NCBI GenBank assembly: GCA_051294375.1
Contig: JBJCIZ010000030.1
Coordinates: 1 to 54,759, forward strand
Length of the DNA: 54,759 nucleotides
Source: Paraspadella gotoi
Taxonomy: Eukaryota; Animalia; Chaetognatha
Direction of reading: 5' to 3'
This document shows positions 1,930 through 34,369 of the stretch, in pieces. Under the pieces are notes generated by a model. It was given only the letters and a program-made list of their open reading frames with translations. It had not been told where the DNA came from and did no database searches. Numbering within the stretch: position 1 is the first letter of the stretch; every line of letters begins with the position of its first letter. Position numbers and translations under genes: made by a program.

Positions 1930-2233
1930 CATTTAAGTAAGTAGACAGAGATTTCAACATGAAACCAAAGTGGATTTTATCTCGGAAAGTTCACAGCAAA
2001 GAGCGGCGTGAGACAGTTTAACACAATACAGAAAATGCTCGGTATTTATACACAGTGAACGGATCAACGACATGGCTCTCTTCCCGATGGCATGAAGCCC
2101 ATCTTCTCATTGGTTGATTCTCGGTGGTGATTCATCCAATCAGAGAGTCCTCGGTGATTTCATCCGAGTTGTCGATCGGTTTGGTTCTGATTCGATTCCA
2201 TATTTTCTCTTGATTCCGATGCCATCTTCGATG
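1930..2233 (-). repeat. 3' LTR of element 1
   Basis: Near-identical to 11612-11922, differing mostly by single-base indels. Sense termini CATCG...AAATG. TATAAAT box on the minus strand near 2044-2050. Confidence 0.93.
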
Positions 2234-4155
2234 CGTCCCCCCCTCCTCAGACGACGGCGTACGGGTCAGTCGGTAGCCGGAGTGGAGACTGGTATGGCAC
2301 AAAAATTCTGTTTTGGCCTGTTCCCAGGTATCGTTGGGTGGTGGTTGGCCTAAGCGTCGCTCTGATGTGCTTGGTGGCCGCAGCAGCAGCAGCATCCGCG
2401 TTAGTCCCGCGATGATGATGACGACGGCGATGGCGAATGGGATGATGTTTGCCGCGTCGGTCAACCAGTTCAACTTTGGTATTTCACCGAATATTTTTCT
2501 CATGGTTGCGTGTGGCGTGCCGCTCGTGATCTCGCCGATATGTTCCTTAAAGTTTTTTTGCTGTCTGGCGTAATTTTCGTGATTTTTGAGGAAATCGTCT
2601 ATTTGCATATAGAGCTCATCCTCGGTGGAGACGAGATCTTTTGTTTCCGGGAGATTGGCCGTGATTTTTCGGTAATCGTTCTGCCGTTCTCCCTCTGTCG
2701 TTTGATATCTTTTCTTTATGTAGTAGATTGGTGAGGAGAACAGCTTGTCTTCGTAGATGAGGTAATGACGTGATGTAGATCGAATGTCGAAATACGTTTT
2801 CTCCTCGGAAGGAAATGGGCAAATCGTGATAACAATCTTTAGTTTTCTTACTGTGCAAGCGTTTGGTCGCATCGAGCGGTCATCAATATTCGCCTCGGAT
2901 GACGGCGACTAAGCCTCTCTTTATGAATGCCGTTGACGTTGGATTTTGTAGCGACTTCTGCTGCTTTTCTTGCTTCTGCGACTTAGATCGCAGATTTCTC
3001 TAGGGAGGCTTTAGTTAAGGTTTCTAAGCTTGCTTGATTCTTTTGAGCAAGCTCAGATCCTTTTTCTCGCAATGCAAGGATAAGCTTGTCATCTTTGCTT
3101 AAGTCTTTCGTCATTTGTTTGGTGAAAAAAAAGTGTGCAGAGTTTGTCTCCNNNNNNNNNNTGTCGCAATCGGGGATTTCCACTTTTTTTCCTGTGCGTC
3201 GTAGAGTGAAAAGCACCTTCTGCTCTGCTTCGCAAATTGGGGCACAGCGTTCGTAGTTATCCGTGGTGCTTGGGCGCACAAAGTTACTAAGGCAAGCTTT
3301 CCAGCATGTTGCGAGACTTCTCTTCACTGCTGGGCTGTCCTTGCAAGGCGTTTTGCCGTCCCTGAGTTTACAATCTTGTAGTGCCGCTTCTCTATCTTTT
3401 TCGGTGAGTGATCTTATAATATTGTCTGAGCTCATCACCATGGGTCCCGTATAGGCCTGGTGAGCCCGACAAGTCCGCTCTTGCCAGGCGAGGACGCCGC
3501 CTGGGTAGAGGCACATTTGTGCGGCTTTGTTGCACTCCGTCTGTCTTGGTAGATTGTCGAGGTCTATGAGTTTGACCTTTTGTTCGTATAATGTGACGTT
3601 TACCATTAATGTTGCTCTCTCTCNNNNNNNNNNNNNNNNNNGAAAAATAAGTTTTTCGCCCGTGCAATATCCGTCGGCATCCGTTGTTCCAATTTCAATC
3701 TTGACTTGATAATGGCCGACTTTGCCGCCTGATATTGATAGCGGTTCCATCAGTCCAGTCTTATCAGAGGTCCTGACCGGGATATTATCGAGTACAACTC
3801 TCTCGCCTTTGTGGAGCGTCAAGCATTGGATTCGGGTGAGTGAGAAGTGGTCCAATGTCTTCAAGTTTGGATATTGGATGGACCACCATCCACAGATGCT
3901 GCCCTGGGCTACGATGGTTAATTCGCAACCCTTCGCGTCATGTTCCTCCTTGTCCGGGATGAACACCAGTTCGCCCCGCACAACTTTTTCAGAGGTTGGC
4001 TTCGGGGAGTTGCAGTGGTGTGGGTCCAGGAGCGTTGTGGAGTGGTCCGACGTTTTGTTGCAGTTGAAGACGTGAACGACCTCAGTTCCGTTACCAAGGG
4101 CTTTGTAAATCATGAGGGCTAAGATTAGCCTCGTGAAATTTTGTTTCATCTCCAT
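2132..4155 (-). CDS. env: Env-like glycoprotein of chuvirus G (class III fusion) type, split across frameshifted ORFs 2983-4155, 2616-2858 and 2132-2872
   Basis: Signal peptide and N-glycosylation sequons (NGT, NKT, NVT). Cys scaffold FNC...HHC...GCEL...ICGWWS...QCLTLHKG...DGYCTG. Later GLVAVIRGE and TKDCYHDLPISF. C-terminal TM helix IIPFAIAVVIIIAGL. Lies between pol and the 3' LTR. Confidence 0.8.
2234..2248 (-). promoter_or_regulatory. Polypurine tract of element 1 (GAGGAGGGGGGGACG)
   Basis: Purine run immediately 5' of the 3' LTR on the element strand. Confidence 0.85.
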
Positions 4156-4229
4156 TTTTTTCTTGATTATAGCGTTAGTTCTTTGAAAAAGATTTGGAAT
4201 CTTTTTCTAATCTTTTTGATTATAGTTTT

Positions 4230-4413
4230 GATCTTTCTAGACTATAGTCTTAAGAAAGACTTTTTGGTTGTTTTCCGATCTTTCTAGACTAGTCTTAAAA
4301 AAGACTTTTTGGTTTTTTTCGATCTTTCTAGACTAGTCTTAAAAAAGACTTTTTGGTTTGTTTTTCGATCTTTCTAGATTATAGTCTTAAAAAAGACTGT
4401 TTTGGTTTATTTC
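4230..4413. repeat. Four tandem 44-47 bp units upstream of env
   Basis: Units start with GATCTTTCTAGA at 4230, 4277, 4321 and 4367. Each contains the inverted repeat AGTCTT-N4-AAGACT. Confidence 0.9.
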
Positions 4414-4779
4414 GGAGCCAAAGCGGGTAAGGGCGCGGAGCGAAGTTGAGTGATCGTGTCATGAATTTCGCTTGTCCGTGCTCGTTTTATTCGGCTCTCT
4501 CTCGCTTCGTCGAGGAGGAGGAGGAGGAGGAGGATCTCTTTTCTTTGTGGCTGGCTTCGTTTTGCAGTTGGTCTTCGCTTGGCGGCTGGCATTGCAGCTG
4601 GCCCTGTTTCTCTCGCGTCTTTTTGCCTTTCTCTTTTCTTCTTTTTTTTTTTGTCTGTTGTTGTTTTTTTTTTTTTTTTTTTTGTTTTTTTTTGCTACGT
4701 CTTGCTTCCGGTTTGCGGCTTCGTCTCTATGTCTTTTGTTTTTCTATGTCTATTGTTTCTTTATGTCTGCGGGTTTTAT

Positions 4780-7700
4780 CTAGTTGTCGTTAGTCACATG
4801 GAGTTTGAGCCTTCTTCTATGATATTTCAGATTTTGTCCGTTGATCGAGACGACGTAATGGTTTCCGTCTCTCTCGATAATTTTGTGAGGCCCTGAGTAA
4901 ATCCTTTTTACTTTGTTTTCGGTTGTTGTTGTTCCGGTTACCATCAAGTCGCGTCTGGCCAGGACCAAGTCGCCGACCTTGATGGTTTTTGTTTTTTTGT
5001 AAGGATTGTTTCGAGCCGATTGTTTATACAGTTTTGTTCTTTGATCAGCGATTTTGGATCTAGCGTTTTCTTGTTTTTCGGCTCGTTTTCTGATGAATTC
5101 GATAAGATTTCTCTTTGTATAATCGTCAGCAGCCTCCACTATTCTTGGCCGGTGTCCAAACTGTATTTCGTGCGGGGACATTTCGGTTTTCCAACCGATT
5201 ATCGGGGTCGCGTTTAGGAGGAGCATGAGGTGCGGCAGCTGGTCCAGCCATTTTCTGGGCTGATCTTCTACTGCCTTCCTGAGGGCCTGCCTTATTCTGC
5301 CGATGTCTCTCTCGGCCCTGTTGCTGTCTTTTCTGCTGACTAATACCCGTCGTCCAACCGTGTCCAAGAGGTCAAGTATTGATCTCATGGCTTTTCCGTT
5401 GAGCTGCGTTGCTCCGTCGAAATTTATTTCCATGTATGATCCATGGTGGAGAAAAATGTTTTCATCTAAGGCCTTGGCGACGGTTTCGGCATCGGCTCGA
5501 CGTAAGGGGATGGCCCACGTATATGCTGAGGCGTTGTCTGATGCTACGAGAATGTAATTATAGCCCGCTACTGAAGGGAGGTGCATTACATCTATGCTGA
5601 GCGATTCCCAAGGCGTAATGGCTAGGTTCGGCGCCGAGGGAGTTTNNNNNNNNNNCCTTGAGTCTGTGGCTTTGGCACAATTTTCACAGTTTCTGACGCA
5701 TTTTGCGGTTGCACTCACTAAGCCTGGTGACGAGATATATTGTGCTGTTATGAAAGCTGTGCGATCTCGGCCCGGGTGTCCAAAATGACAGTGTATTTTT
5801 GTAATTATCTCCTCGACTTTGCTAGGAGGTACCACATATTTGGTAGTTTGGCTGTTATTTTTGAAACCTTTGAGGATGAGTATGCCATTTTCTGTTACGT
5901 CCAGGTCGGGAAGGCAGTTTGTTAAATATCTCTCTGTGAGATCTTTTCTTTTCTCCATTTTTTTGTTGAGGAGTTCTTCTGCGGTCGGTCGGTCATGTTT
6001 TTGTAATGTTTCTATGATGGTTTTGAAAAGTTCGTCATTTCTTTGCCAAGATTTTATTATGGATGCAATGGGAAGTAGATTCTTTTGTTTGACGTGGGGT
6101 TGTTTTGCTTCTTCCGCTATTTCAGCTTCAGTGGCGTCGACATCAGCCTCCATTGTGCTGTCGATCATTGCCTCTCCTTTTGCACCTGGCCAGTTAACAT
6201 TTATGATGTCGATGGCATCTGTGCTAGGGGGAAGAGTATTTTGCTTTTCTTTTTCTTCCGTTTCGTCATTGTTTTCCAGCTTAATATTGATGAGATCACT
6301 GGGGAGCTGATCAACTTGGCATGTGTTGGTGATCGGTCGTTTTGGTCTCCCTCGTCGTTCTGGGGGTCGGAGTTCGGCAACACATATGGTTTGGATTGAC
6401 TTTTTGGGTAGGATGTTGGCCGGGCGCTGTGGTGTTTCATCGCTGACCAAGCTGACTTGGCCAGTGATGGTCCTGAAGATCCTTATTTTTCTATCTCCGT
6501 TTGGGTTCCCATAGACCTTTTCATATTTGCATCCTGCTTGTTTTGTTGATTCCTCTTCCATTAATATGATTGTGATGTTGGTCATCTCGCTGAGTAATTC
6601 TAGTTCAGGATGACCCAAGTTCCAATCTTTGGCGGCGATAGTTCTGATGAAAGTGTCCGCGTCTTTTGTTTTCGGTTTCCCATATAATTTTTCTATGTTA
6701 CTTTCTTGTTGCGAAATTTTTGGCGGACGAATTCGAAAAATTTTGATCTGAAAAGTTTTTGTGTCCTCCTGGAGAATTTGTGACATGAGGGTTAATGTTG
6801 GTGCATGTCCTGTTACCAGGTCGAGGTGTTCTGGATTTTTTTGTTCTTCCACTGGATTTTCTGCGAAACCTGCCTCATATTTCCCGTCGATGTCGAAGCC
6901 GGCGGGAAAAAAAGGCGTGTCCAATGGGGTTACTTGTCCTTGTTCGGTGAATCGCGTGAGAAAATCAGCTGGATTGTCTTCACTTTTTACCAGAATCACC
7001 TCCTTTGGTTGGCATTCTTGCCGGATCTCGGTGATCCATCGGAGGACATTGGTGGGCAGGAGTTGTTGCCTGTCATGTTGTAAATCCATAATTCTTTTAA
7101 AATATTGTGAATCTGTGACGAGAGTAACTCTTCTGCCACATGTGTAGCCTTTAAACTTTCTAACCATCATGTTGAAGGCTAGGGTTTCGAGGACGTTTAT
7201 GTGCTTTATTCTATATTCCTCTGGGAATGATTTAGAATGAAAGGACAGTGGATATTCGACGCCGTCAGCAGTGGCGGTAATGAGGCCGCCCATTGCGCTG
7301 GTGCTGGCGTCGGCGTATATTCTATATGAGCCATGTTTGATTCTTGCGTCATTTAAAAAATTTAATCCTGGCGACGATTTTATTTCGTCGATAAGTGTTT
7401 GAAGCATCGCGATGTGTTTGTCTGAAAGCTTAAATTCTTTTTTGTCTAACAACGTGAGGGCGTGGAGTGGTTGAGCTATGTATGAGAAGCGATGTGTAAA
7501 GCATCTGTAGTAGTTGAGGGAAGCGAGCATTGCTCTTAGCTCCTTTTGGGTTTTGAGAGTCTTTAGTTTCACTTCTACTGCTTCGAGTTTCGCCTTCTGT
7601 GGCATGAGTTTGCTCTTAGAGATACTGAAACCCAAGATTTTGATATCTTCTCTGCGCAGCAGGACACTTTTTGTCCATTTAAGGACAACGTTTTCGTCTC

Positions 7701-8221
7701 TGCATCTTTGGAGAAGGTCACGGAGTCTTTGTGCCATGTCTTCTGGTGACTTGGCGGTTAGGATTAAGTCATCCACGTATACTAGGAAACTTTTTACATC
7801 CGTCCCCAAATCTTGGAAAATCTCGTCGAGAATTGCTTGAAGCACGTTTACGCTGTTGACTCCTCCCATGGGTAATTTGTTCATCCACCAGTTGTGGCCG
7901 GCTCCCGCGNNNNNNNNNNATGAGTCTCCACTGTTTGGCGAATGTTTCGTCATTCATTTCATCCTGGCCATCGGCTATGTGCCCTGGCTTCTTAATAAGA
8001 AAGGCGTTTGAGTAAGCCTCATTTCTGGTCCTTGATACGATCCCTGCCTTTTCGTATACCTCTAAATATCTTTTTAAGGCCGCCTTTTTCACTGGGCCTT
8101 GATTCGCAAATTTTGGTTTTGGTAGATTTTCTTCTGAGAAACCAAGGTCGACTCTGTAATTTAAGAAACCTTCTTTGCAATCATTGATGGTTTCTCCGAA
8201 TACATCTCTGTATTCCCACAC
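4780..8221 (-). CDS. pol: Pol of element 1: RT, RNase H, inserted domain, integrase (broken by a frameshift and N-gap at 7910-7919)
   Basis: RT: QWRL, KLPMG, VYVDDLIL. RNase H: YADAS...ETLA...VTDSQ...ADFLTR. Integrase: HCHFGHPG...CENC zinc finger, SIDVM/NFDGA/RAERD catalytic DDE, YSGPHKI GPY/F-like module. Confidence 0.93.
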
Positions 8222-11200
8222 CGTTTCCCAGACGAGGTGAGCTTTTTCTCGTAGGCTGGGATCGACATCTTTGAATGGTTTGAGGAATTCTTCCTTTCCG
8301 CGTGCGTCATGTTTTTCTTTTCTTTTTGTCGTGCTTCCTCTACTGCTTTCATTTCTTCCTCTGTGGGTTTGTGGTGGATAATAGTTGTGGCTGGGATGTG
8401 ATCCTTCCTTACTTTTCTTAATAAGGGTTTTTCGCCTGATGTGTCGGCCTGGACGGGTTCTGCGGTGGCTTCGGTTTCGAGGCCTAGCTCCAATTTTGCC
8501 TCATTTGTGATGAGAGGGCGTGCAGTTCCCCATGTTCCGGGGCTGGTGTCCAATTCTATTCCTTCGCGGAGTTGGTCGCCGTTGACAACATATGTTTTTT
8601 TGTCATTAGATTCAAGTATCCATTTTGAGCCAGCAACAGTCTTCCAGTAGGGCCTGCTTGTCATCAGCCTGATTGTTCCATAGGCGTCACGTTCGGCGTG
8701 TATGGGCAGTGTTGTTGCTTCATCCAGGTTACCGTGCGCAAGCCATCTGGCAGCTTTTAAAGCCTCGTATTTCTCCCTGAACAGGTGAGTGATTGGTTTT
8801 CCGGCCATCGACGCGATCTGCAGGTTGTCTCTTTGGTCGGAAGGTTGTACGACCCAGAGTTGTTCTGGTGGGCCTGGGTTTGTTATCGCTGTTCCGATGA
8901 TGATATCTTGATCGTTTTCATCGGCAGATATGTAAAAAACTGTTTTCAGTACCCACTTCTGGAACATTATTCTGAGGTCGATCCTTTCAGTGAGAGTTAT
9001 TGTGCCTGTCGCGGTTGACAGGCGAAGTGGAGAACCGTGGTAGATATTCTTGTTGAGGGACCATTTGTCTACAAATTTTCTAGGTATAGTATTGACCGAT
9101 GCTCCTGTGTCATACAGGCAGCTAGCTGGCACTCCCGCGATTACAGCCGGTATGTAACTATTTTTGCCTGAATGGCATATTTTTCCGGTGTCGTCCCTTG
9201 GTTCGGGACCTTGCTCCTCGTTGATTACGCTTGCAATTCTTTCGGGGAGGGGAGGCATGTCCGTTTCATCCTTGGTGGATGTGGGCTCGGTTGGGTGATG
9301 AAGTAGATTTTCTGGTTGGTGGCATTCTTGCTCGACTCGTCGAATGGTGGCTTGGTGAAGAGATTCACCAGTTTGTTCACCCGCCACAATGCGGTAAGTA
9401 GGGTTACCTTGGTCTCCTGTTGGCCGGAGCTTCCTGAGGCTTGGCCTCTCATTTCTCCTACTAGGATTTGGCCTGTTTTTATGTTTGTCTGGTTTCTCAG
9501 ACGGGAAGGAGAGTGGTAAATCGGCAAAAGGCGTGGCGTTGTCATTTGCCTGAGGATCTTTCGATTCTATATTATCCTCATCTCTTTTTGCTCGTCGAGC
9601 GAGTTTGGCACAAGCTCTGGACCTAGATATTCTGGCCTTCTTTTCGCCGTTGTTGGCCTCGGCCCAGTTTTTCCATCCTAGTTTGTGTAGAAATTTATTT
9701 GCTAAGGCAATTTCCCTGGCGCTGAGGGGTTTGAGAAGTTTGTATAATCGCGACGCCGTTGACCTTCCACGGAACTGGTGTGCCGTCTCGGCTAGGGTTC
9801 TGACCTTCTGCCTAGTTGATTCATCAATTCCATTTGTTTTGATATCCATAATCTTTTCTCCGAGAGACTTGTAATTGTCTTTTAGCTTAGCTTGCGAAAA
9901 CTCACTTTCGGTTTTATATTGTTTATGGATAACACGGTTGTAATAGAAATTGTTTTTATTTTCATCTAAATCATCAGCAGAGTCAATATCAAGATTATCC
10001 GTTAAGTCTACGATATCCCGGCGTCTCCCAAAGCTTGGCCCCTTTTTTCCTTTCTTTTCATCTCGCCAGTTGGTCCTTTTTTCATTTTTCCAATCGCGAG
10101 CCTTGTAGTTGTTGTTGTAGCTTTTCTTTTCATACATCCGGTCCGGGCTGCGCCTGTCGCGGCGGTCGTCGCGACGTTCATAACGGCGTTCAGCTTGTCC
10201 ATTTCGTCCTGATCTGCCAAATTCTTTTCTCATTTCTCTCATCATCTCGCTCATATTGTTTATTTCCTGCAAGACTGATCCTTGATAAAATGCTGTGGCG
10301 CTGTTGTTTGGGTCTTTGTCGTTTTGGCCCTTTTGAACGAGGGCGTTGACGAGTTTTTCCTTGTCCTCGTCGGAGACCGTCTTAACGATTTTCCGTGTGG
10401 CGCCATCGTTGCTTTTCTTCAGGTAACCTCGCAATTTGTACTCAATTGCTTTGCCTAGTTTGCGTGTTTCGCCTTTTTCGAGGAGGGTCGTCCACTCCAG
10501 TGTTTCAGAAGTGATGCCGGGTACGTAGGGTTCGAGTGCTTCTACCAGCATCTGGGCGACGTAATCCGGGATGGANNNNNNNNNNTTTTCCCGGACCGTT
10601 TCGAAATTTTCTTTTGCTGCATTTACGAGAGCCAGTCCGTATTTGGCGTGCACTTGTGGGTCGACTTCGATTTTTGCCTCGGCAAGTGCTTCCGCAATGC
10701 TGACGGACGATCCTTCACATAAGGCGCGAAGTCCTAGCCACATAGATTGATTTATGGGCTCGATAAATCGACTTGCGACCTTGTCACGGGCGAGGAGAGC
10801 TCTCAGCTGTTGGTCTACCTTGTCGGTTGTCGGTGAGTCCTTGAAGGCCTCATAGAAGCTGCGTAAGAAGTCTTCCGGAGATTCATCTCCTCTTCTCTTC
10901 TCGAGTTTGATTGGCTGGTCGTTTGGAGTATAAGATGGTGGATCGCTCCTACCACTTTCGGATGGAGTGTCTTCCTGTTGGGGACGGGCTTCTTTGGCAG
11001 GTGGTTGTGTCAGATAAAGGTTGTTCCCTTGATCGGCGAGGATGGCGTTGGTGTTAGGGTAGATCGAGGGTGGTGGAGGAGGGGTGGGTTGGGCAATTGA
11101 GGATAATCGCGCGTTGATGTCTTGGCTTTGTTGTTTTTCCCGATGGTCTCGGTTTTCTTTGGCCATGTCGCGCGTTTCTCTCATCATCTCCTTCATCATT

Positions 11201-11529
11201 TGGTGGAGTTCTCCCAGTTGGGATCCGAGATGCATCTCGGTTTGATCCAGTCGAGTGTTTATTTTTGATTCACTTTCGTCGATCCGTTGATTTACCTTTT
11301 GGTAATTCTGCTGCTGTTTCAGATTATTATCATTCACCAGCCTCAGAATTTGACGAATGCTTTCTGCTTGCCTATTTTCTTGCAAGCATTGTTCTCGCAG
11401 TGCTCCTGAGACTTCGAAGGTGTGGAAGTCCAAGTCAATGCTGCCGCCCTCGCTTTCGGTGGAGCTGCCCGGCGCCGTGGGTGTTGGCGGCGTCGGAGCC
11501 GTCATTTTTCTTCTGACGGCGGAGTCCAT
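8161..11529 (-). CDS. gag: Gag plus aspartic protease of element 1
   Basis: 1122-aa ORF starting ~80 nt after the PBS. Coiled-coil and Pro-rich N-terminus. Protease motif CLYDTGASVNTI with downstream IIIG. No CCHC knuckle seen. Frame shifts into RT near 8200-8300. Confidence 0.85.
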   Translation of the reverse strand: MDSAVRRKMTAPTPPTPTAPGSSTESEGGSIDLDFHTFEVSGALREQCLQENRQAESIRQILRLVNDNNLKQQQNYQKVNQRIDESESKINTRLDQTEMHLGSQLGELHQMMKEMMRETRDMAKENRDHREKQQSQDINARLSSIAQPTPPPPPSIYPNTNAILADQGNNLYLTQPPAKEARPQQEDTPSESGRSDPPSYTPNDQPIKLEKRRGDESPEDFLRSFYEAFKDSPTTDKVDQQLRALLARDKVASRFIEPINQSMWLGLRALCEGSSVSIAEALAEAKIEVDPQVHAKYGLALVNAAKENFETVREXXXXSIPDYVAQMLVEALEPYVPGITSETLEWTTLLEKGETRKLGKAIEYKLRGYLKKSNDGATRKIVKTVSDEDKEKLVNALVQKGQNDKDPNNSATAFYQGSVLQEINNMSEMMREMRKEFGRSGRNGQAERRYERRDDRRDRRSPDRMYEKKSYNNNYKARDWKNEKRTNWRDEKKGKKGPSFGRRRDIVDLTDNLDIDSADDLDENKNNFYYNRVIHKQYKTESEFSQAKLKDNYKSLGEKIMDIKTNGIDESTRQKVRTLAETAHQFRGRSTASRLYKLLKPLSAREIALANKFLHKLGWKNWAEANNGEKKARISRSRACAKLARRAKRDEDNIESKDPQANDNATPFADLPLSFPSEKPDKHKNRPNPSRRNERPSLRKLRPTGDQGNPTYRIVAGEQTGESLHQATIRRVEQECHQPENLLHHPTEPTSTKDETDMPPLPERIASVINEEQGPEPRDDTGKICHSGKNSYIPAVIAGVPASCLYDTGASVNTIPRKFVDKWSLNKNIYHGSPLRLSTATGTITLTERIDLRIMFQKWVLKTVFYISADENDQDIIIGTAITNPGPPEQLWVVQPSDQRDNLQIASMAGKPITHLFREKYEALKAARWLAHGNLDEATTLPIHAERDAYGTIRLMTSRPYWKTVAGSKWILESNDKKTYVVNGDQLREGIELDTSPGTWGTARPLITNEAKLELGLETEATAEPVQADTSGEKPLLRKVRKDHIPATTIIHHKPTEEEMKAVEEARQKEKKNMTHAERKNSSNHSKMSIPAYEKKLTSSGKRCGNTEMYSEKPSMIAKKVS

Positions 11530-11596
11530 CTTCTTGAAGGCGTGGTCGTAGTGGTAAGGCTTTGTCTCTTCTTTTTGGAGTCGTGGCTTGTCGAGT

Positions 11597-11611
11597 CCAG
11601 TCCTGTCACCA
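11597..11611 (-). promoter_or_regulatory. Primer-binding site of element 1 (TGGTGACAGGACTGG)
   Basis: Starts with TGG directly after the 5' LTR. The first 13 nt are identical to the element 3 PBS (34357-34369). Confidence 0.85.
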
Positions 11612-11922
11612 CATTTAAGTAAGTAGACAGAGATTTCAACATGAAACCAAAGTGGATTTTATTCTCGGAAAAGTCACAAGCAAAGAGCGGCGTGAGACAG
11701 TTTAACACAATACAGAAAATGCTCGGTATTTATACAGAGTGAACGGATCAACGACATGGGCTCTTCTCCCGATGGCATGAAGCCCATCTTCTCATTGGTT
11801 GATTCTCGGTGGTGATTCATCCAATCAGAGAGTCCTCGGTTGATTTCATCCGAGTCGCCGATCCGGTTTGGTTCTGATTCGATTCCAATATTTTCTCTTT
11901 GATTGCGATGCCATCTTCGATG
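11612..11922 (-). repeat. 5' LTR of element 1
   Basis: Direct repeat of 1930-2233. Contains minus-strand TATAAAT and AATAAA. Followed immediately by TGG of the PBS. Confidence 0.93.
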
Positions 11923-12255
11923 TCCTTATAAAATCATAAAATTTCAAAAAAATATTTTCTTAATTTTAAAAAAAGAGTTTTGGATTCGAAAACTGAAAAA
12001 CTTTTGTAAAATATATTACATGATATTTTTAGGTTAAAGCTGCGAAAAATGATTAAAAGTTCATCATATAATAGTTTCTACTACAAAGTGTAAAAAAGTA
12101 GAGAATTTGACTTTTTCCATTTTTGACACTGAAGACATTGAAATTTTTAATAACATATTTTATTTTTTGATCTAACTTTTTGTGAAGAATCAGAATCTTT
12201 AATAAAAATTTAAAAAAAATTATTTTGAAAATTTATGATTTTATAAGAATATTAC

Positions 12256-19794: not shown

Positions 19795-20557
19795 CTAAGG
19801 CGAGTCAATTGTCCACTGGCTGTCCATGATCCACCCTCCATGGATGCTCTCGGGCTTTGAGTCAAATCCACCGTCTGGCAAACAGTATGAGGGAGGTGGT
19901 TGCAGTCCTGGGGGGGCATAGCGATCCTCTCCACGCAGTCCATTTTTTTCACGCCAAACACATGGGCGATAAAGGTCGATGTCGGAGGGAGGAGGGTAAT
20001 CGGGGTAGCATGGCGGAGAGCTACCATCAACATTCGGTGAGCCTGGTACCGTGACAGATAAATTATTTCCCAAATATGGCAGAAATTTGCAGAAATCTGA
20101 AGTGCAGCGGATTGGAGCCGCGTCAACGGGTGCCCGGTGCCTGGTACCCGGTGGTTTTCGGACAAGTTTACCGGTTTGGTTCAAAGTCAGCGGAACATGC
20201 TCCGGCTGACCAGGGCTGTACCCATAAAAATCCTTGGCTCTGTTCAGCAAGCGATGGCCCTGAGTCTGGTCTGAGTGAAGTCCAACCCCAATATTGAGAG
20301 AGGGAGAGTAAGGATGAAGTTTACGATCTAGCGATGCCAGTTTTATGGCGGCAAATAAGGCGCCAGGGGCCAGCAGAAGGTAGACACCAAGAGAAAACCA
20401 GAATCCATTGAAAGGAAGGAGAAGATTCACGCATACAAGATCGGTGAAAGAAGAAATCATCGTCCAAAGGCAATCACAGGTGCCAACATTTGTTTCCAGA
20501 GCCACTAAAAGCGAGGACACTACCCAATCCGCTTGCATCACAACATGGTTTACATAT
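19795..20557 (-). CDS. PROM: Prominin, last coding exon (TM5 and Pro-rich cytoplasmic tail)
   Basis: VGTC...LVC...PFNGFWFSLG...FAAIKL is the prominin TM5 signature. Acceptor TATAG|A at 20557 is phase-compatible with the exon 2 donor. Confidence 0.8.
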
Positions 20558-20701
20558 CTATAATAAATTAATAATAATTAATGTGTATCCCGCTTAAAAA
20601 AGAGTAGTACAGGTCTGTGCAAAAAAACACACTCTTAAACATTGCGCAAATAACTCTTGTTAAATTCCTTTATTATGAAAGGATAATATTTATAATATTT
20701 A

Positions 20702-23700
20702 TGTAACCAGTAGACGCATTTGAATCCGACTGAGGCGATATACCACTGGTCTCTCTCTCTAAACCCTTCCTCTCTCCTCTTTCTCCGAGCCGGTCTATTC
20801 ACACGGTCACTTTGACCAAGCTTTGGCAATGACCTTAGATTGACCAGACTCAGTAATAGGGCCAAGGCGACCATGAGGTCAAGTTGGTCCGGGTGATGAT
20901 AAAAGTGGATCAAGAGAGAGCTCGTCTCACTTCTTTTCTACTTCTCTTACATCGTCACAATTCTTCACCTTCTCCTCACTTTTATTATTACTATTTTCGA
21001 CTTCTACATTGGTGAACCCGACTTAAGATAAGTAGCCTTATGATTTATACTAATACTGATCAATTGGTTTATGATCTGATTGATCAAGTAATTGATCAAT
21101 TATTTTATTAATCAATCAATTAATAGGCGGTTTAATTAGTGAAAAAGATTTACTCAGTTTCACAGCCTATTTCGCGATCAGTTTATTTTAGATTTTTGGC
21201 CCATTTTTCTTCAAGGAATTTTCTTCAAAAATTAAACAATTTTTGCAATTTCTATTTTTCTCAGTCTCGCGCGTCCCACATTTCGTTTTTCCAAAGTCCA
21301 GCATTTCATCTCGTCTACCATCGTCTACCTGGATTACCTCATCAAAGCTCAAGATTAATTCTTATTAGGCATTTTCAATGATTTCTCCTAAGCTCAATTT
21401 TGAATTTTTGAAATACGATACTAAGCCTAATCAATTTTTATCACATTTTTGAAGAATTTTGTATTTAGCTCTCAGTTTAAATAAACTTTTATTAAAATCT
21501 AACCTACGGTATTGTGAAAAATTGTCTCGCCAACGATTTTTTCATTTTACCACGCCGTTTAAGCAAGTTTTATGAGAAATTTTGCTAGCTCTATTGCTAT
21601 AGAACGATTACGCGAACATTTTTCTTTCAGACTTTTCCCTTCATTAGAAAGATTGAAAAATTTTGGACTCATCTGTACGGCGCCACCATCACCAGAGCAA
21701 GATGACGCTTTCAAGACACCACACGGCGACCAGATCAAAGTGAAATCTATCATCAAGCCCCCCCGATCCAACGTCGGCTCAATTGCAACTGCACAAGGAC
21801 CATCAAACAGGCTGATAACCACCTTCAACAACAGGATTTTAGGTCTAGAGGCAAAGCAGGAAAGTTTCAATGAGAGCGTAAAGGTATCTATAGAATACCT
21901 TAAATCACAACTTCAAAAACTCTTGGCAGCACAGCAGGCGCCACAGGCAATGCCAGAAAAATCCACCGGCAACCTCAGTAACAGATTATGCCAGTTCATG
22001 GTCAAAGCCACCCAGACAACGTCGACGTGGTGGGAGCCTCCCCACCAACACCCATGGATTATCAGGCGCAAAGCACCAACCGGTCCAAGACACCCAAGTT
22101 GCTGCCTTTTAATGTCGGCAACATTCGAGCCTGGCTCGCTGCAGTCGGGGGGAGTTTCCGCCTTGCTGCAGTCGTCGAGCAGCACAAAAAGATGCACCTT
22201 CTGGGTGCAGTCCCGCAGGAGCATCAGGTGTTGGTCAGAAGTTTTTATACTGATGACCACCCTGTCTCAGGCGGGTACCAAGCCCTGAAAAAGCAGCAAA
22301 CTGAGCTGTTCGCCAAAAAGCCTCGGCAAAAGGCACAAAAACTTCTTGGTCACCACTCCCTTGCAGGACGCACACCTTCGCAGTTGGTGGCCGCACTGCG
22401 CGCTGAGGTCAAATCCCTGGCGATAGACCATCTCCTCAATGCGATCCTGGCTGAGGTCCTCCCAGCCCATGTGGCCGGAAGGGTAGTCAGCGATGGGGAA
22501 GAGATGCATTTTACTCGGCCCAAGGTGATCTTCAAAACCAATTGGAAAAGTTGTCAATCATGTCGACACCTCCAATCGATGGGACATCTTCAAGGACGAC
22601 CTGTTTGACTCAGAGTGCGATGAGTACGTGCCCGACTTGGTGGATGACACATCCACCACAAAGGATGTACCTCCACGCAAGTACACCAACATGTGTGCCA
22701 CGAATTCCGGACGTGCCCAACTACGCCCCAGGACACAGGTCCACCCTGGCTACCAAAGGTCAACAACAACACAGCAGCGCCATTTCCCCAACAACAGCAG
22801 CACCACATTTGCCGACCAACTAACAACTACTTCAACTCCTCACCTGACCTGGTAAACGGACTCTGTTTCTATCTTGGACATTCAGAGACCAAGCAATCAA
22901 ATGCTACCTAGGATGCAAGCGGGGAAACGGCCAAGCGAGCAGCCAGAGGCAGTAAATGCCGCTAATGGTAGTATAGAACCCTTACTGCACGTGTACAACA
23001 ACAACAACAACATGGCTTGTGGACGGTAGTGCAAGCGTCACTTTGATGGCGCCGACCACAAGCTCGGCCTACTTGTAGATCTTGACGATTTTTTAACTAT
23101 TACAGACAAATCCTACCTGGACAGCCCTTTCAGAGTCAACACGGTCAATAACGCCTATTTCAAATTGATTGACGAACGGCCAGAACTCACTCAGCTCAGT
23201 TTTGACTCTTCAAAGACGAAGCATGGTGTAGAACACCATATTCCAACCGAGGGTCATTATAAGGAAGAGTCAGAGTGCTTGGGCATCACCACTACATGTG
23301 GTAAAAAATGCAGTCACAAAATACAACCGCTGCCCCATCATGTCGCAGGCAAAACAATTTTTTCAAAAGTAGACCTTTGTAAGGGCTACCATCAAGTACC
23401 TATAGCAGAGCAGGATATTTGCAAAACCGCCGTCATCACTCCTTTTGTCTCGTGGGAATTCCCGTTCACTCCATTTGACCTCAAGAATGCAGGTCCGGAT
23501 TTTCAAAGGATGATGGACAAAGCCCTCAAAGATGTACCACACATCTTTGTATATCTAGATGACATCCTGGTCGCCTCAAGCAATGAAGAAGAACACATGC
23601 AAGATCTCACATTACTGTTTGACACCCTGCAAGCGAATGGTTTAGTAGTTAACAGGGCAAAATGCGTATTGGGCATACCATCACTCGACTTTCTTGGTTA

Positions 23701-25600
23701 CCAGGTAGACGCAACAGGCGTCAGGCCATTGGACACAAAAGTCGAACATCAAGCAATTCCCCCAGCCAACATCAGAGGTTCAAAGATACTTGGGCATGCT
23801 CAACTACTACTGGCGTTTCATTCCACACATTGCCGAAGTCCTTACACCAACCCCCGAGTCCTTAAATGGACCGAGGAAATTACTCAAGCCTTCAACGAGT
23901 CTTCAACAAGAACCAGACCAAATGGCCACCTTTCGACCGGGAACTCCTTGCCGCACACCGCTCAGTCTCAGAAGGGCGCTACTTCGTTCTGTTTTCTGAC
24001 CAGAACAGCCTAATTCCCGCCATACGCAAGAAATCTGAGCCACATTCAATGCATCAAACATATCAATTATCTGCCATCTCCAAATACACAACAGACATCC
24101 GATACATTGAGGGCAAGGCCAACGTGGTAGCGGACACACTATCAAAAATCATCAGCCCAGCAAGCAGTGGCCCAGAACCTGAAGGATCATCAGGACATTC
24201 AGAAATGCCCTCGTTGGTTGTAACAGTCAACGCAGTTGGCCCCCAAGGCATTGATTTTGCCGCTTTAGCCGGTGACCAGAGTTCTGACGAGGAGATCTAG
24301 CGACTACTGGCAGACGCCCACACCAGCCTGCGATTCAAGATAGTTCGCCTGAACGATTTTGACATCATCTGCAATGTCAGTTCAGGCAGGGCGCGCCCCT
24401 TGGTTCCCACAACATGGTGCCATCGAGTCTATTATGCCACCCACAACCATTCTCATCCGAGCGTCAAATGCACAAAAAAGCTAGTAACAAAGAGATTTGT
24501 TTGGCCAAAAGCCGCGTCAGACGTGGCAAAATGGGCTAGCACAGCAAGGTACAAAGACACACCCAGGCTCCACTACAACCTTTTGAAGCACCATCGAGGC
24601 GTTTCGAACACGTTCACATTGACTTGGTGGGTCCCTTGCCCACCTCAGCCAAGCTATAGACTACAAGCTCAACACCACCACAGCTTACCACCCGCAGGCG
24701 AACTGGATGGTCGAACGGTTTCACCATACCATGAAGGCATCATTGAAAACGCGTTGTGATGCGTCCGGCGCAAACTGGTTTAATCAACTACCCTGGGTCT
24801 TATTAGGACTTGTATTCTTGCCTCAGCAAACCGGGTTTTTGTGCTCCGTGGCCAACAGGGTCACTCGCTAGCTACTCCCTACTTGGGCCCTTACAAAGTA
24901 GTCTCAAGAGATGACAAGACCTTCAGTGGACATCCCCGGCCGTGGACAAGAGAAGATCTCAATCGACAAGATTAAGCCAGCAACAACAGAACCAGATGTC
25001 CAACCAACACCTCCAGCAGCCCCAAGAAGAGGACAACCACCAGCAGCAACAGGCGAGTCATTTCCTAGGGGGGAAGGTCAAACAAATAATAGAACGAGTC
25101 AGCCCAGCGGCCGACTCCACTCATTCCCAACATTTATATCCTCAGGTGACCCAACCTCAACAGCAACGTCAACAAGAACCTCCACAGCAACAGCAACAAT
25201 GGCCACCACGACAACGATCCACTCAACAACCAACATGACTCCAACCTCAAAGACAAGCACGTGCAAGGCAATACCATCGTCTGGGTTCTGAAGTACTAGA
25301 TATATATTATATTAGATGTTTAAGATCTATCAGTCATTTGCAAGATCCGTGATTGCTAGATAACCGGTTATCAGCACTATCACCAGATCATCACCAGTTG
25401 GTCACTGTTACAATTAATCACAACTTGCCTAACAGCAAGTAATCATCAAAAACAAAATCATCAACAGCTGGTTATTTTCACGATTTAACCAAGCTTGCCT
25501 AACAGCAAGCAATCATCATAACACTTTGACCAAATCAATCATTTTTCCTATCTCCCTAATTCCTTTTTGTAAAATTTCTTCCCAAAATATTTTTTTGAGA
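20702..25600 (+). mobile_element. Degenerate CsRn1/Kabuki-type Ty3/Gypsy element (element 2); 3' LTR not found
   Basis: Candidate 5' LTR TGTAA...CTACA at 20702-21008. Trp-like PBS TGGTGAACCCGAC at 21010. Gag KLLPF...AW and LCFY...KC motifs. [10 protein letters not shown] and YLDD. RH DRELLA. INT remnant YHPQANWMVERFH. Many stops and deletions. Confidence 0.85.
21988..25000 (+). pseudogene. Decayed gag-pol of element 2
   Basis: Fragmented ORFs 21988-22608, 23165-24013, 23866-24300 and 24400-24759 carry gag, RT, RH and INT motifs. Confidence 0.85.
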
Positions 25601-28600
25601 AGAGATACAGTAACTTTTCTCTAGACTCCTAGTAGTTCAGGGCTCTCATAACTCTCGAAATATGGGCTAAAATTTCTTTATATTCGAGGATCAGATGCGG
25701 GAATAATTGCTTTATTGCCCACTTGACGGATTTTAAGAAATTTCAAAATTTTGCGCTCCAAGCCCTAAATTTTTTAAAAATTGTTGAAGCTATAAAATGA
25801 CGTAAAAAAAATTTAAAAATTATTTATATTTTTTATGTTATTTTGAAAAGTTGTAAAAAAGCTATGATACCATTGTTCCTTTAAAAATTTTGGATACAAA
25901 CAATTCTCTCTCTCGCGAGATTGTTGTAAGATTACTTTATCATTAAAAAAAATTTGTTTAACTAATGAAAATCTTTTTATAATTTGTAAAAAAAAAGGAA
26001 ATGCTAAATATATATATGTTTAAATCTGAATTGTCTCAGTACATCCAAAAGTAGAAGCTATACTGATTCTAAATATACTTTCACATTTAAAAAATATTTT
26101 TTACAACCAGAGATATTTATTTACGAAGTGACAAAAAATTATAAAAATCAACCTTTTTTTAAAGCTTAATAAAAACTGATGGAATGAATATTATTCAATG
26201 AAATTTTGCATTCGGGTGAGTTGCCTTGTGATTGTCTTTTTCTTGCTCTCGGGTTTTTATAATAATCAACCGGATCTGTGGGAAGGGTAGAATTTGCACG
26301 TTTTGGCTTCTCGTCTCTGATTGGTTGCGAGTCGGGGAGAACGACGGAGGTGAATGAGCGTCATTTCTTCTTTTTTTTTTAAGGCGAGTTTCTCGTCTTT
26401 TGTTTCGACAGAGGTGAGTGAGCGTCGTTTCTTTTTTTGAGGCGAGTTTCTCTTGTGGAACCGGTTTCTCGTAGCCTTTGTTTTCATCTCGTGAGCGTCA
26501 TTTCTCTCTTGCACTAGTTTGAGAGCCAATTTCTTTGAACATTATGATTCGAGTAGGAATGTAGAGAGTTTTTTTTTTTGTTAAGGATTAATAGAATAAT
26601 GTATCTAGTTTGTTCCTCTTTTATAATAAAGGTAATTTTGTATACTATTTATATATTTTTTTGTCTAAATTTTGTATGCTGGTTTTTGTTTACTAAGGGT
26701 AAGTACATCATTTTTGTTGAGTGGGGTTTGTCATTCGATCGAGTCTTCATTAGGCACGGGGTTAGGTTTTAGACGTCTGTGGTACCGCGACCTTTGACCA
26801 TTAATAATGATGACATAATGATTACCATCTTCCTGGACGACTTTAAGAGGGCCCGTGTAGATGCGCTTAACTTTATTTTTGGCAAGGGTTGCGCCTGTGG
26901 CTATGAGGTCTCGTCTTGCCAAGACCAGATCTTTGGTTTCCTATATGTATTTCGCCTAAAGCTCTGTCTAAAAAGGTTTTGTCTTTGCTCAGTTAGTTTT
27001 CTTTCGGCCTTTTCGCGTTTGTCTGCCCTGTGTCTTACGTATTCAATGAGTGATCTCCTTGTGCAGTCATCGGCATTCTCGACGATCCTTGTCCAGTGTC
27101 CGAATTGAATCTCGTGTGGGGACATGTCAGTTTTCCATCCAACAATGGGCGTAGCGTTTAGTAGTAACATTAGTTGTGGCAATAATTCGAGCCAGTTACT
27201 TGGCTGGTCTTCTATGGCTTTTCGTAATGCTTGCCTGATTCTCCCAATATCTCTTTCTGCTCTGTTACTGTTTTTTCTTCCTACTAAAATTTTTCGGCTG
27301 ACAGTGTCTAAGAGATTCAAAATGCATTTCATAGTTGAGCCATTGAGTTGGGTGGCGCCATCAAAATTAACTTCGAGGTAAGATCCGTGGTGGAGGAAAA
27401 TGTTCTCATCCAACGCTTTGATGACGCTGTCAGCGTCAGCGCATTTGAGTGGGATTGCCCATGTATACGCACAAGCGTTGTCAGAAGCAACGAGGGCATA
27501 TTTATAACCTGGTGCATTTGGGAGGTGCATCACGTCAATGCATAAAGATTCCCATGGTGAGATAGCGAGGTTTGATGTTGATGGCGTCTCATTGTTCTTT
27601 TGTTGGTCAGTTGCCATTGCGCAATTTTTACAATTTCTGACCACTTTTGCCGCTGCAGTTGTCAGTCCTGGCGCTGAGATATACTGGGCTGTGATGAAGG
27701 CTGTTCTGTCTCGTCCAGGGTGTCCGAAGTGCTCGTGTAGACTTTTTCGGGAGGGATTACGAATCTGTGTGTGGCGTGTCGCCTTTGAATCCTTTGATGA
27801 TGATGTCGTCCGGGGTGACGTCAAGGTCGTCAAGACAGTTGGAGAGATACTTTTCGGCGGCATTTTTTCCTTTTTCTCTCTTTTTGCCGAGAAGGTTATT
27901 TGTCTTTTCCCTGTTCCCTTTTTTATTTCGTTTATTACATCTCTGAAGGATTCATTTGCTTGGGATTAATGAGAAAACTTTTTTGTGTGGGTTTTTTATT
28001 TCCTCCTCGATCTCTTGTAGAGTTACGTCAATGTTTGCTTCCATGGCGCTGTCGATAACGGCTTCCTCTTCTGCTCCCTGCCAGTTGATAAGAAATCTTT
28101 CAATTATCTCATTGTGAGAGTGATTTTCGACTGGTACATGGATTGTTGTGACGTTTTCAAAGTTTATGAATAATAAATCATTTGGCGCTTCATTGATGGG
28201 TCTTGTTTCTGTTGGTCTTGGATATTAATATTTAGTAAGTCGTTTGGGGCTTCGCTGATGTGCCTTGTCTCTGTTCTTTCTTTCCTTGGTCTTCCTTTGT
28301 TTTTGGGGAGTTTTAAACTTGTTAACTCAATAACCTTTAAATCATGTTTGATTGGGCGCAATTGATTTGCTCTGTCTGAGTCGCCAACCAGACTCACTTG
28401 TCCGGTAATGGCTCTGAAAATTTTTATCGTTCGATCGGCTTGTTTTGTTTGGTAGTGGCGTTCGTATTTGCAACCCGTTTGGCTTATATTATCCTCGTCG
28501 AGCATGACAATGTTTATGCCGGTCATTTCGGCTAACATTTCGAGTTCTGGATGGCCGAGAGTCCAGTCTTTGGCTGATATTGTGCGGACAAAGTTGTCCG

Positions 28601-30634
28601 CGTCCTTCGTTTTGGTTTTTCCATACAACTTCTCCATATTTTCTTTTTTTTCGAAGCTTTCTCTTGTGAGCTCAAAGAACTTTGTCCTGAAGGCTTTAGT
28701 CTCTTGTCCAGAGTTTGCTGTTTGAGATACTGAAACCGAGAATTTTAATGTCCTCCTTTCGTAGTATGATGCTTTTTGTCCACTTGAAGACTACGTTCTC
28801 ATCTCTGCATCTTTGTAGCAATTCATGGAGTCTTTGGCCATATCTTCTGCCGATTTAGCCGTGAGGATCAAATCATCGACGTAAACTAGAAAACTTTTTA
28901 CGTCTCTCCCAAGATCAGAGAAAATTTCATCTAAGATGGCTTGTAGAACATTTACACTGTTTACGCCTCCCATTGGGAGCTTGTTCATCCACCAATTATG
29001 TCCGGCTCCGGCAAAGGTGGTGACGCATTTACACCTTTCGGTTAGGTTTACTTGGTGGAAACAAGCCAAGATTTCAAGTGAACATTGGAGCTCATGGGGC
29101 TTGTATTGTTCGAGGATCGACGTTATCGTTTATGGCTCTGTTGCGTAGGTGGAAATTTATCATTCACTGCGGAGAGATCGCATATTAATCTCCATTGTTT
29201 TGCAAACAGTTCGTCAGACATCTCTTCTTGTCCTTCCGCAATATGACCTGGTTTGTTTATTAAAAATGAGTTCGAGTAAGCTTCATTTTTTGTTCTTGAA
29301 ACGATCCCGGCGTTTTCGTAGACCTCGAGGTATTATTTCAAAGCTGCCTTCTTTACCGGTCCTTGGTTCACAAAACGTGGTTTAGGAAGATCCTCCTAAG
29401 TGAACCCAAGATCAACTTTGTAATTTAGGAAACCCTCTTTACAATCGTTTATGCTTTCACCAAAAACATCCCTGTATTCCCAGACTATCTCCCATACTAG
29501 TGGGGCTTTTTTAGCTAGGGAGGGATCGCCGTCTTTAAAGGGTTTCAAAAACTTTTCTTTCCCTCTTGCATCATGCTTTTCTTTTCTGGCTTGGCTAGCT
29601 TTTCTTACGGCTTCCCGTTCTTCCTCTGTTGGGTTATGGTGGACGATCGTTGTTGGCGGGATGTTTTCTTTTCTGACTTTTCTTAAGTGTGGTTTCTTTT
29701 TACTGAGATCGGCCTGGACAGGTTCGACGGTGTTTTCCGTTTCAAGATTTTGCCTCAGTTGTTATGAGGGGGAGGGCATGTCCCCATTTCCCTGGGTTGG
29801 CCTTCATCTCGATCCCGTCTCTAAGGTCGTCTCCATTTACTATGTGGATGTTTTCGCCATTTAACGATTGGCTAATGTTATCCAATAAGTCCGATCTGCA
29901 GTTAATTTCGTTTTTCCGTCTTTTTCTTTCTCTACATGAAGTGGAAGCTCGATTTTCTTATCGATGCTTCTTCTTGCCATCCACCTGGCGGCCTTAAGGG
30001 CTTCATGTTTATCCTGGAAAAGATGGGTGATGGGTTTACCATCCATGGATGCCATCTGTAGATCATTTCTTGCTTTTGATGGTTGTACTACCCACATTTG
30101 GTTGGGTGGCCCTGGGTTGGTAATTGCTGTGCCGATGATAATGCCCTGGTCGTTTTTGTCGGCTGAAATGTAGAAAACAGTTTTTAAAAACCAGGTTTGA
30201 AACATTATCCTGATGTTTATCATCTCGGTTAAAACTATGGTTCCGGTTGCTGTTGAGAGTCTTAACGGTTTTCCGAGGTAAATTTGGGTAGCTAGTCCCC
30301 ATTTTTCAACAAATTTTCTGGGGATGGTATTTATTGAAGCCCCGGTGTCGTATAAGCAACTAGCCGGGGCGCCAATGATGACAACCGGGATATAGCTGTT
30401 TTTCCCGGCGTCATCGCGTGGTGCCGGTCCCTTGATTTCGGTAATCAATCTTGTATTCACTTTCTCTGGAAGGGGGGGTAGCTCTTTCTCATCTGTTGAT
30501 GTTTCGACGCTCGGTTGTGGAGGCAAGAAATTTTCTGATTCATGAATTTCTGTCTCTATCTGCCTGATAGTGGCTTGGTGTAAGTATTCTCCGTTGAACT
30601 CTCCTTTGATGATGTCGTAAGTTGGGTTGTTCAA

Positions 30635-31238
30635 TAAGGCGTAGTAAAATTTCTAAATCTAACTTTAATTAAAATTCTAAAAGTGAGGAACGAACAACAT
30701 TATTCTAATGAACATTTATATAATAAAAAAATTTATAATAAATTTTACAATTTACACAATAAGCCATATTTATACTAGTACTAAACCAATAAATGTTAAA
30801 ATTTCAAAACGGTGTTTTCTAAGATTTTTTTGCAGATTTGGATTCGTCATAAAAAGTTGATAAAAAGAAATATAACTCTTTTTAAAAAATTCCTTCATTA
30901 AGTGGGTCAAAAATTAGAAAAAGCTATATTTTAAGTTGAAAATTAACTTTTTATGTATTAAATATAGTTTTTTTAATTTTTAACCCACTTAATGAAAGAA
31001 TTTTTAAAAATGATTTATATTTTCTTTTATCAACTTTTGACGAGGAATTCAATCAAAATTTAGAAAAGCCTATTTTGAAATTTTTCGATTTTATAAGGAT
31101 AGTACTATATATAAATATAGTCTACTGCGAAAATTAAAAAACATAAAATTAATTTTTTTTACAAATTATTGTTTACTGATGGTATGTTGTTCATAATTGA
31201 CTTTTAGAATTTTCGTATGTAACTTTCACTACGCCTTA
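30635..31238. mobile_element. hAT-like MITE inserted in element 3
   Basis: Perfect 11-bp TIR TAAGGCGTAGT / ACTACGCCTTA. 8-bp TSD TTGTTCAA at 30627-30634 and 31239-31246. Fold-back interior. Confidence 0.9.
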
Positions 31239-32168
31239 TTGTTCAATCCACCTGTAGGTTTTAATCTCCTGAGTCCAAGTCGTTCATTTCACCTCTTGGG
31301 ATTTGGCCTATTTGTTTGAGGGATGACGTTGTTTTCCGCCTCCTTCCGTTCCGCCCTTCTAACGAGTTTTGCCCAAGCTTTGGACCTCTTCATTTTGGCT
31401 TTCTTTTCGGCTTCATTGGATTCATTCCAATTTTTCCATCCCATGTGATGAATTAATTTATTTATCACTACTAATTTGTCCCGCGTTGATGTATTAAGTA
31501 ACTTATGCATTCTTGCAGAGGTAGATTTTCCTCTAAAGTTATTTGCAATCTCTGCCAAGCTTTTTACCTTGGTAACATCATTTCTGTTTTCGATATTTGC
31601 TTCCTTCGAGTTTATTTTCTCGCCTAGCGTTTGGTAAGCTTGCTTTAGGTATTGATTTTTGACTATAGTTCTTTTCTTTTGATCAATGACAATAGGGTAG
31701 TATAATTTTTCTTCATTTACAGTAAACGAGTCATCATCAGCGGAATCATTTTCCAATTATTCATTAACATAAACTAGGTCTCATCTTTTTCCAAATCTTG
31801 AGAATATTTTTCCTTTCTTGTCATCGTTTTGCCAACTTCTGCTTCCTTTCTCGTTTCTCCAAGCTCCTTTTGATGAAAATCCTTTATCAAATTTTTTTCC
31901 TTCGTGACGGCGGTCATCCTGGCGGCGATCGTCGTAGCCCTGGTTGTCCTGGCGGCGATTGTCGTAACGACGGTCATTGCAGCGTTGTTTGCCGCGTTCG
32001 TCGTTGAATCGAGTAGGTTTGCCGATCTGGCGCCTTATCTCCTTGATGGATTCGTTGACGTTGTTCAATTCTTGGAGCATGGTTCCCTGGTAAAATGCTG
32101 TTGCACTCGCCGTGGGATTCTGGTCGGTGAGACCCTTTGAGACAAGAGCACTGACAAGCTTCTCCTTG

Positions 32169-32548
32169 TGAAGAGAAATTCGCCTCGTGATCCGTGAACT
32201 TTTTATTGGTCATTTCTCTCTCTCCCTCTTTCGTGATTTTGGCCGATATTCGGCAACTATACGTTTCTTTATCAATTTTTGTGACCGGCTTGTTCAGTCG
32301 TACGTGAAACCACTTGAAGAAACGTCGCTCGTTATTAAACATTGTTTTTACAAGTCTTTGACTTTTGCTACTATTTATGTCACGTCTGCTACGCCTTGTG
32401 TCATGAAGAAAATACAAGTTTTACAGTTTTTGAACGCGTCTTATCGATTTCTTAAGAAATAGTCAAGACTCTCGTCAAAACCCCTTTCTCGATGAGCGAC
32501 ATCCTTGAACAAGGTCCGCAAAGCGTGGAGACTCAAAACGTCTCTACA
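32169..32548. mobile_element. Solo LTR inserted in gag of element 3
   Basis: Termini TGAAGAGA...TCTCTACA with 5-bp TSD CCTTG. Removing it restores EDKEKLV, matching element 1. Confidence 0.85.
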
Positions 32549-33791: not shown

Positions 33792-34369
33792 AGGAAGTTG
33801 CGTTGTACGGGCATCGCGACATGTGTGGCGCTAGTTAGTGTGGGGTAGATCAATGCTGGCGGCGGGGGCGTCCCTTCCGCTTTGATGTGCAGCTTGGCGA
33901 GGATGGCGTTCAATTTTGGCGTCACTTCGGACATGTGACAGTCCATGGATTTTACTTTGTGATCCATGGCCTGCATTTCTTTCGCGAGGGCGTCGATTTT
34001 ATTTTTATTTTCGATGTTCGCGTCATTGACAATTTGCATCATCTGTTTTGCGATTACTCCTTCCTTTGTGGTAAGTCTGCAGTGCTTGGCCAGTTCTTGT
34101 GGCATGTTGAAAGTGCGGATCAAATCATCTTCTTCGGCACTGCTACTGTCATCGTCGTTTAAGAGTTTTGGCTTCGTTTTGTTTGGGTCCCGCCAATCCA
34201 TCCAGTTGCCCTTGGGTGCCGGGATGGGACCGGATGGGTGGTATATTTTTCCCGGCGGGGGCGGAATCGGAGGTGGAGGGTACAGAGTCAATTTGGGGTG
34301 GCGTGGTCGTTGTTGTTGGCTTCGGCTTCTCGGAGGAGTGGTGAGTCTTGCCCAGAAGTCCTGTCACCA

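Follow-up and report, generated by a model that had tools for sequence, protein, structure and literature searches.

A Ty3/gypsy-like LTR retroelement with a broken chuvirus-type envelope gene in the chaetognath Paraspadella gotoi

The 54,759-nucleotide stretch of Paraspadella gotoi DNA analysed here (contig JBJCIZ010000030.1, positions 1 to 54,759; hereafter the window) contains an integrated LTR retroelement of ~10 kb (1930–11922, minus strand), in which gag-protease and RT-RNase H-integrase are followed by a third gene, env, that is homologous to chuvirus-type glycoproteins and is broken in the assembly. The element is probably a divergent offshoot of those Ty3/gypsy elements that carry an env, the HSV/gB-type errantiviruses. 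Its features, and a decayed sister element elsewhere in the window, are as follows.

1926–1929, no strand: target-site duplication, 3' side, AGGA in the sense of the element
1930–2233, minus: 3' LTR, 304 bp, termini CA...TG
2236–2248, minus: polypurine tract, separated from the 3' LTR by 2 nt, read from the sequence
2132–2999, minus: fragments of the C-terminal half of env, split between frames -2 and -3 and interrupted by stops, placed by tblastn of the relatives P0009 and P0024, hydropathy and stops per frame
2983–4155, minus: N-terminal env ORF, 390 aa, with the putative class III fusion-domain region and two N runs inside
4156–4779, minus: pol-env spacer, A-rich, with a short tandem repeat at ~4212–4416
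4780–5850, minus: integrase, HHCC finger, intact D-D(35)E, GPH tail
6394–6840, minus: OTU-like insert in the RNase H-integrase bridge, weak matches
6970–8320, minus: RT and one RNase H, YVDD at 7779, N-terminal part of RT in a frame other than the remainder
8161–11529, minus: gag-protease ORF, 1122 aa from the ATG, protease DTG at ~9111, without a CCHC knuckle
11599–11611, minus: primer-binding site, abutting the 5' LTR, 13 nt common to the sister element
11612–11922, minus: 5' LTR, 311 bp, termini CA...TG
11923–11926, no strand: target-site duplication, 5' side, 4 bp
26200–34716, minus: sister element, decayed, of a related family, gag-pro-RT-insert-INT, integrase core 72% identical

Between the two LTRs, the domains run in the order protease, RT, RNase H and integrase, and together with the primer-binding site (PBS), the polypurine tract (PPT) and the target-site duplication (TSD) this is the arrangement of a Ty3/gypsy element. 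The 4-bp duplication flanks LTR ends that were defined by homology, where random pairs of flanking 4-mers would match by chance in 0.8% of cases. Aligned with each other, the two LTRs agree at 296 positions and differ by 8 mismatches and 7 gaps of one base, and from this ~97% identity the insertion would be young. The catalytic motifs of RT and integrase are intact. No Gag family matched the gag-protease ORF in profile searches, and an Rfam search of the window returned no match. The PBS agrees with a tRNA-Leu entry in the supplement of PMC13524379 over 9 nt only, and its exact 12-nt form is absent from the supplements of that study. The window has five N runs (3152–3161, 3624–3641, 5646–5655, 7910–7919 and 10576–10585), every one of them within coding regions of this element.

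The RT-RNase H segment matches Ty3 best (78 bits), followed by caulimovirus (66), foamy virus (47) and MLV (35), in a comparison whose matches included no Bel/Pao or Troyka structures, while the integrase is a tie between foamy virus (53.7) and Ty3 (52.8). Pfam recognised RT_RNaseH, Integrase_H2C2 and rve in Pol, and no Bel/Pao Pol or Gag family at E<=1 on either gag-pro or pol. Judged by sequence, Pol is Ty3/gypsy-like and not Bel/Pao. A first-pass annotation of this DNA had called Pol Gypsy-type from WRL, LPMG and GPY/F motifs, with a Bel/Pao grouping of RT named among the results that would overturn its reading; WRL and LPMG are present, but the integrase tail is a GPH variant where GPY/F, which is not universal in Ty3/gypsy, was expected. 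One RNase H directly follows RT, and the bridge to the integrase gave no match to a second RNase H, which together with a tether characterises Retroviridae and Loki-Odin. The nearest database relatives are 22–30% identical, and no relative exceeds 30% identity to RT-RNase H; against 11 aligned references its identity is 21–30%, at a median of 73 bits compared with 108–191 among the references themselves. In a 12-row RT-RNase H tree, built without named references or outgroups and after dropping L010, L012 and L013, which had no usable RT segment, the element forms the longest branch (2.16). An RT-motif scan at the DNA level yielded five loci, and the four with a readable match proved not to be RTs.

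The termini of the element depart from the usual pattern, and they do so in two families. The 5' LTR of the sister element (34370–34716) starts with CATCG, ends with AATG and is followed by the same 13-nt PBS, so that both families have CA...TG ends in place of TG...CA, the form that is usual, if not universal, in Ty3/gypsy. Compared end to end, the LTRs of the two families align weakly, scoring 149 against 59±9 in 300 shuffles. A boundary scan of 16 inward trims and 4 TSD lengths gave two matches, one with a TSD of 4 bp at the ends defined by homology and one with a TSD of 3 bp; the latter, a Troyka-type boundary, was rejected because it needs mismatched LTR ends. The TSD was seen in one copy only. 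TG...CA is the retroviral end rule, and CA-3' ends are near-universal. With CA...TG ends in both families, integrase would thus join TG-3' ends. If these ends are real across copies, integrase would break the near-universal CA-3' rule, providing a natural test of end recognition, and such elements would escape annotation tools that require TG...CA. Word searches of the open-access literature, a scope outside which Repbase falls, returned no description of CA...TG termini.

Neither an env nor a 3' LTR was found in the sister element, which looks truncated. It is interrupted by two related AT-rich insertions forming an inverted-repeat pair (~30650–31240 and ~33200–33760). Prominin coding pieces, which mark the host as an animal, lie at 46100–47983 (minus strand, Pfam E=4.5e-46, an uninterrupted frame of 627 codons) and 19795–20577 (minus strand, E=4.2e-8), and the sister would be intronic if both were pieces of one gene. 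The window also holds a second, ordinary-looking decayed gypsy-type element (21563–25100, plus strand, RVT_1 E=4e-21), and a long A-rich tandem array with a 9-nt period (52283–52950). An RT-like frame at 39348–40223 (plus strand), which by eye we take to be Penelope-type, had no Pfam match at E<=0.1 and lies amid repeated fragments at 40400–52000.

A stretch of ~370 residues separates RNase H from integrase, and part of it resembles an OTU protease in both families. The Pfam match to OTU is E=0.021 in the window element and 0.086 in the sister, and the top two Atlas clusters for the insert carry OTU (0.90 and 0.89); PDB and NCBIfam gave no support. By eye, the insert lacks Cys or His at the expected catalytic positions, and it is predicted to be degenerate and inactive. 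OTU domains have been described for Ginger1 and Helitrons in the available text of PMC2836005 and PMC6431247. Word searches of the open-access literature found OTU described for these two only and returned no account of it in LTR elements, and the main text of PMC13524379 does not mention OTU.

Taken together, the CA...TG termini, the long Gag without a zinc knuckle, the OTU-like bridge and a class III env subfamily of its own could instead mark LTR retroelements that form a deep lineage of their own, on a par with Troyka, a reading that we consider unlikely. We are equally doubtful of its fuller form, an undescribed deep enveloped lineage represented here by two or more families in the one animal, an integrase that would join TG-3' ends, a pseudo-OTU in Pol and its own fusogen subfamily. 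The ends and the PBS are indeed common to two families whose LTRs align weakly, but only one copy carries a TSD, and non-TG/CA ends also occur in insect errantiviruses. The RT-RNase H is distant from all 11 references, yet Ty3 remains its best match, the single RNase H and the GPY/F-like tail fit Ty3/gypsy, and gypsy elements often have long branches (P0005, at 1.94 in the same tree). The 229 ENV/fusogen sequence rows in the supplement to the eLife study (PMC13524379) lack the motifs of the env subfamily, a result of exact-motif searching, which is insensitive in gapped alignments. There is also the precedent of Troyka, where odd termini and phylogeny together led to superfamily status in the available account (Kojima 2025, PMC12440569).

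A divergent gypsy branch, the reading that we favour, has against it the termini, the GPH tail and the OTU-like insert, all of them unlike what gypsy elements usually show. It is tied to known envelopes by the homology of env, and this homology had to be traced through relatives. The whole 390-aa env ORF gave zero matches in Pfam, PDB sequences and a word-index protein search; the Pfam signal appeared only with the unbroken N-terminal piece, and the relatives surfaced only with an index-free phmmer search. For the N-terminal piece, Pfam returned a sole family, PF24664 Monjiviricetes_fusion, at E=4.7e-4 and 18.7 bits, below the cut-off of 27. The phmmer search recovered 15 relatives among 1.84 billion representatives, the best being P0009 (E=6.7e-28), which was also the only protein returned by a profile search. 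The closest relatives are unnamed metagenome proteins, 28–41% identical. Seven of the 15 match PF24664 at E<=1, and two pass the cut-off. P0024, a full-length, intact protein of 717 aa and a cluster mate of P0009, matches PF24664 at 76.6 bits; env aligns to it with 30% identity and 186 bits, compared with 16.9 when the sequence is reversed and no more than 21.6 in any of 50 shuffles; 14 of the 16 Cys are common to both. With 18.7 bits for the N-terminal piece and 77 for P0024, against 864 for the env of L001, sequence comparison places env as a remote member of the PF24664 family. L001 and L002, recovered here independently, combine a gypsy Pol with a PF24664 env of 864 bits. L002 (1–9150) is an IMG/VR contig with terminal overlap, carrying gag, pol and a PF24664 env, apparently a circular or complete gypsy element. 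Neither viral nor metagenome contigs yielded a locus with a relative of the window env or Pol, and the failure to recover any contig that links an env relative to this type of Pol counts against the favoured reading.

Structure prediction for P0024 points in the same direction. Its model has a mean pLDDT of 47 and is confident only over approximately residues 116–290. Searched against BFVD, it gave a best E=1.8e-8 and matched herpes gB as well as glycoproteins from chu-, xinmo-, qin- and rhabdo-like viruses, and among the top 17 rows the 16 that are named all come from the chu-/xinmo-/qin-/rhabdo-like or gB groups; identity to these viral glycoproteins is 9–16%, with TM values of 0.14–0.21. 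With VIA, the top seven rows are all class III fusogens, with an rmsd of 4.2–5.3 Å over 109–138 residues and Z scores of 5.0–6.5, in a range (under 8) where scores are common. In a Foldseek search of the PDB, herpes gB gave the best rows, none reaching E 0.001. The L001 env was among the sequences aligned for this model, and its presence may favour a class III fold. The class III fold is seen for P0024 only, in the fusion-domain region 120–284; a single-sequence model of the window env was unusable (pLDDT 36) and found no Foldseek match. A likeness of the N-terminal piece to ML/MD-2 lipid-binding proteins (Atlas 0.91–0.94, recognition below threshold) was dismissed as generic beta-sheet resemblance. 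By transitive homology, the view that env is a remote class III fusion glycoprotein of the chuvirus/herpes gB type is well supported.

This agrees with the first-pass annotation, which had placed env with chuvirus class III glycoproteins and not with baculovirus F: the PF24664 and P0024 matches bear it out, and a structure search like the one it proposed gave chu-like and gB matches for the P0024 model, though none for the window's own model. The sequence motifs on which it relied are present as a CTLLHKG-type motif (CLTLHKG), DGYCTG, AVIRGE and TKDCYHDLPI, with a Cys-CG spacing of x10 instead of x9. Its further proposal, that the glycoprotein was captured independently from an RNA virus, lacks support; we see no sign of recent capture because identity to viral glycoproteins is as low as 9–16%. 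That a gypsy element recently acquired a chuvirus glycoprotein would accord with chu-like virus glycoproteins being the best structural matches and with env not being seen in the sister, but the missing env says little because the sister is truncated before any 3' LTR, and the nearest relatives of env are unnamed metagenome proteins. Moreover, gypsy elements across animals widely carry a gB-type env, an association argued to be ancient in the available text of PMC13524379, so we regard recent capture as distinctly improbable. Likely, env was long inherited with the element lineage, not freshly captured.

As assembled, env has no intact reading frame running from signal peptide through ectodomain to transmembrane helix. 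The ATG at 4155 (minus strand) opens 390 codons with 16 Cys and 4 sequons, ending at a stop at 2983–2985, and the hydrophobic, presumably transmembrane, helix at ~2381–2446 (KD 2.6) lies in a different frame. Alignment of a relative passes through frame -1 (to ~2990), frame -2 (~2993–2775) and frame -3 (from ~2632), with in-frame stops between, so that env is broken across three frames in the assembly. The third gene reported between integrase and the 3' LTR is therefore there, with its sequons, Cys and transmembrane helix, but not as a single ORF; of the reported signal peptide we find, by hydropathy alone, a weakly hydrophobic candidate N-terminus (KD 1.1), and the interval given for the gene, 2132–4155, runs ~100 bp into the 3' LTR. 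All seven LTR gaps are one-base losses from the env-adjacent 3' LTR within same-base runs. Losses of this kind are typical of long-read assembly error, and this pattern suggests assembly error near env. Pol carries breaks too, the start of RT being out of frame. That env is already dead cargo in an element spreading solely as an intracellular retrotransposon, as its several breaks and the env-less sister might imply, is highly improbable given the 14 of 16 Cys kept relative to P0024, LTR gaps that fit the assembly-error pattern, and the breaks in Pol as well.

If the element is a divergent gypsy branch of this kind, its intact family members would follow a retrovirus-like cycle. The 5' LTR would drive genomic RNA, a host tRNA would prime at the PBS, and RT/RNase H would make cDNA using the PPT. 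Integrase would join TG-3' rather than CA-3' ends, leaving a 4-bp duplication, and a trimeric class III Env may let particles fuse into other cells, for example those of the germ line.

Several described systems share parts of this design. In the available account of Troyka (PMC12440569), termini are likewise non-TG/CA (rare variants begin CA or end TG), LTRs are short and there is a single RNase H; its own traits are CG...CG ends, a 3-bp TSD, a CX2CX8-10HX4C knuckle and the lack of env and GPF/Y, whereas the window element has CA...TG ends, a 4-bp TSD, no knuckle and an env, and so falls outside Troyka. The giant gypsy-like Burro/GYPSM1 elements, as presented in PMC6431247, also combine an env akin to the glycoproteins of negative-strand RNA viruses with additional ubiquitin-related domains, but exceed 30 kb and have their env between gag and pol in one continuous frame, unlike the separate 3' env gene found here. 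Anakin, a Pao element of mosquitoes (Dezordi et al. 2020, PMC7642597), is likewise an LTR element whose pol is followed by a chuvirus-type glycoprotein, while the window Pol is gypsy-like and without Bel/Pao domains. A later study reports, in its accessible part, no clear capture of a chuvirus glycoprotein by gypsy elements (Dezordi et al. 2023, PMC10084718).

The closest parallel is provided by Chary & Hayashi (eLife 2026, PMC13524379), whose available text counts 1512 gypsy elements that carry an env and finds the gB type to be spread as widely as the F type. The novelty that the first-pass annotation saw in a gypsy Pol with a chuvirus-type Env does not stand, because the methods of that study list 114 elements in which a Chuviridae-like glycoprotein, found with chuvirus-like baits, adjoins gypsy pol, and because L001 and L002 were recovered here. 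The HSV/gB-type errantiviruses described there and the window element are alike in their LTR-gag-pol-env-LTR order, gypsy-like Pol, length of ~10 kb and class III env, whose Cys scaffold is that of the Insecta_C1 rows; they differ in that the window env is of a remote subfamily and the window termini are CA...TG. Not being intact, the window copy would fail the filter of that study, and its lineage may already be among the elements reported there. The combination of a gypsy Pol with a class III env extends a published pattern by a further host lineage, and the residual oddities, namely the CA...TG termini, the Pol insert and the RT-RNase H divergence, outweigh that combination in interest.
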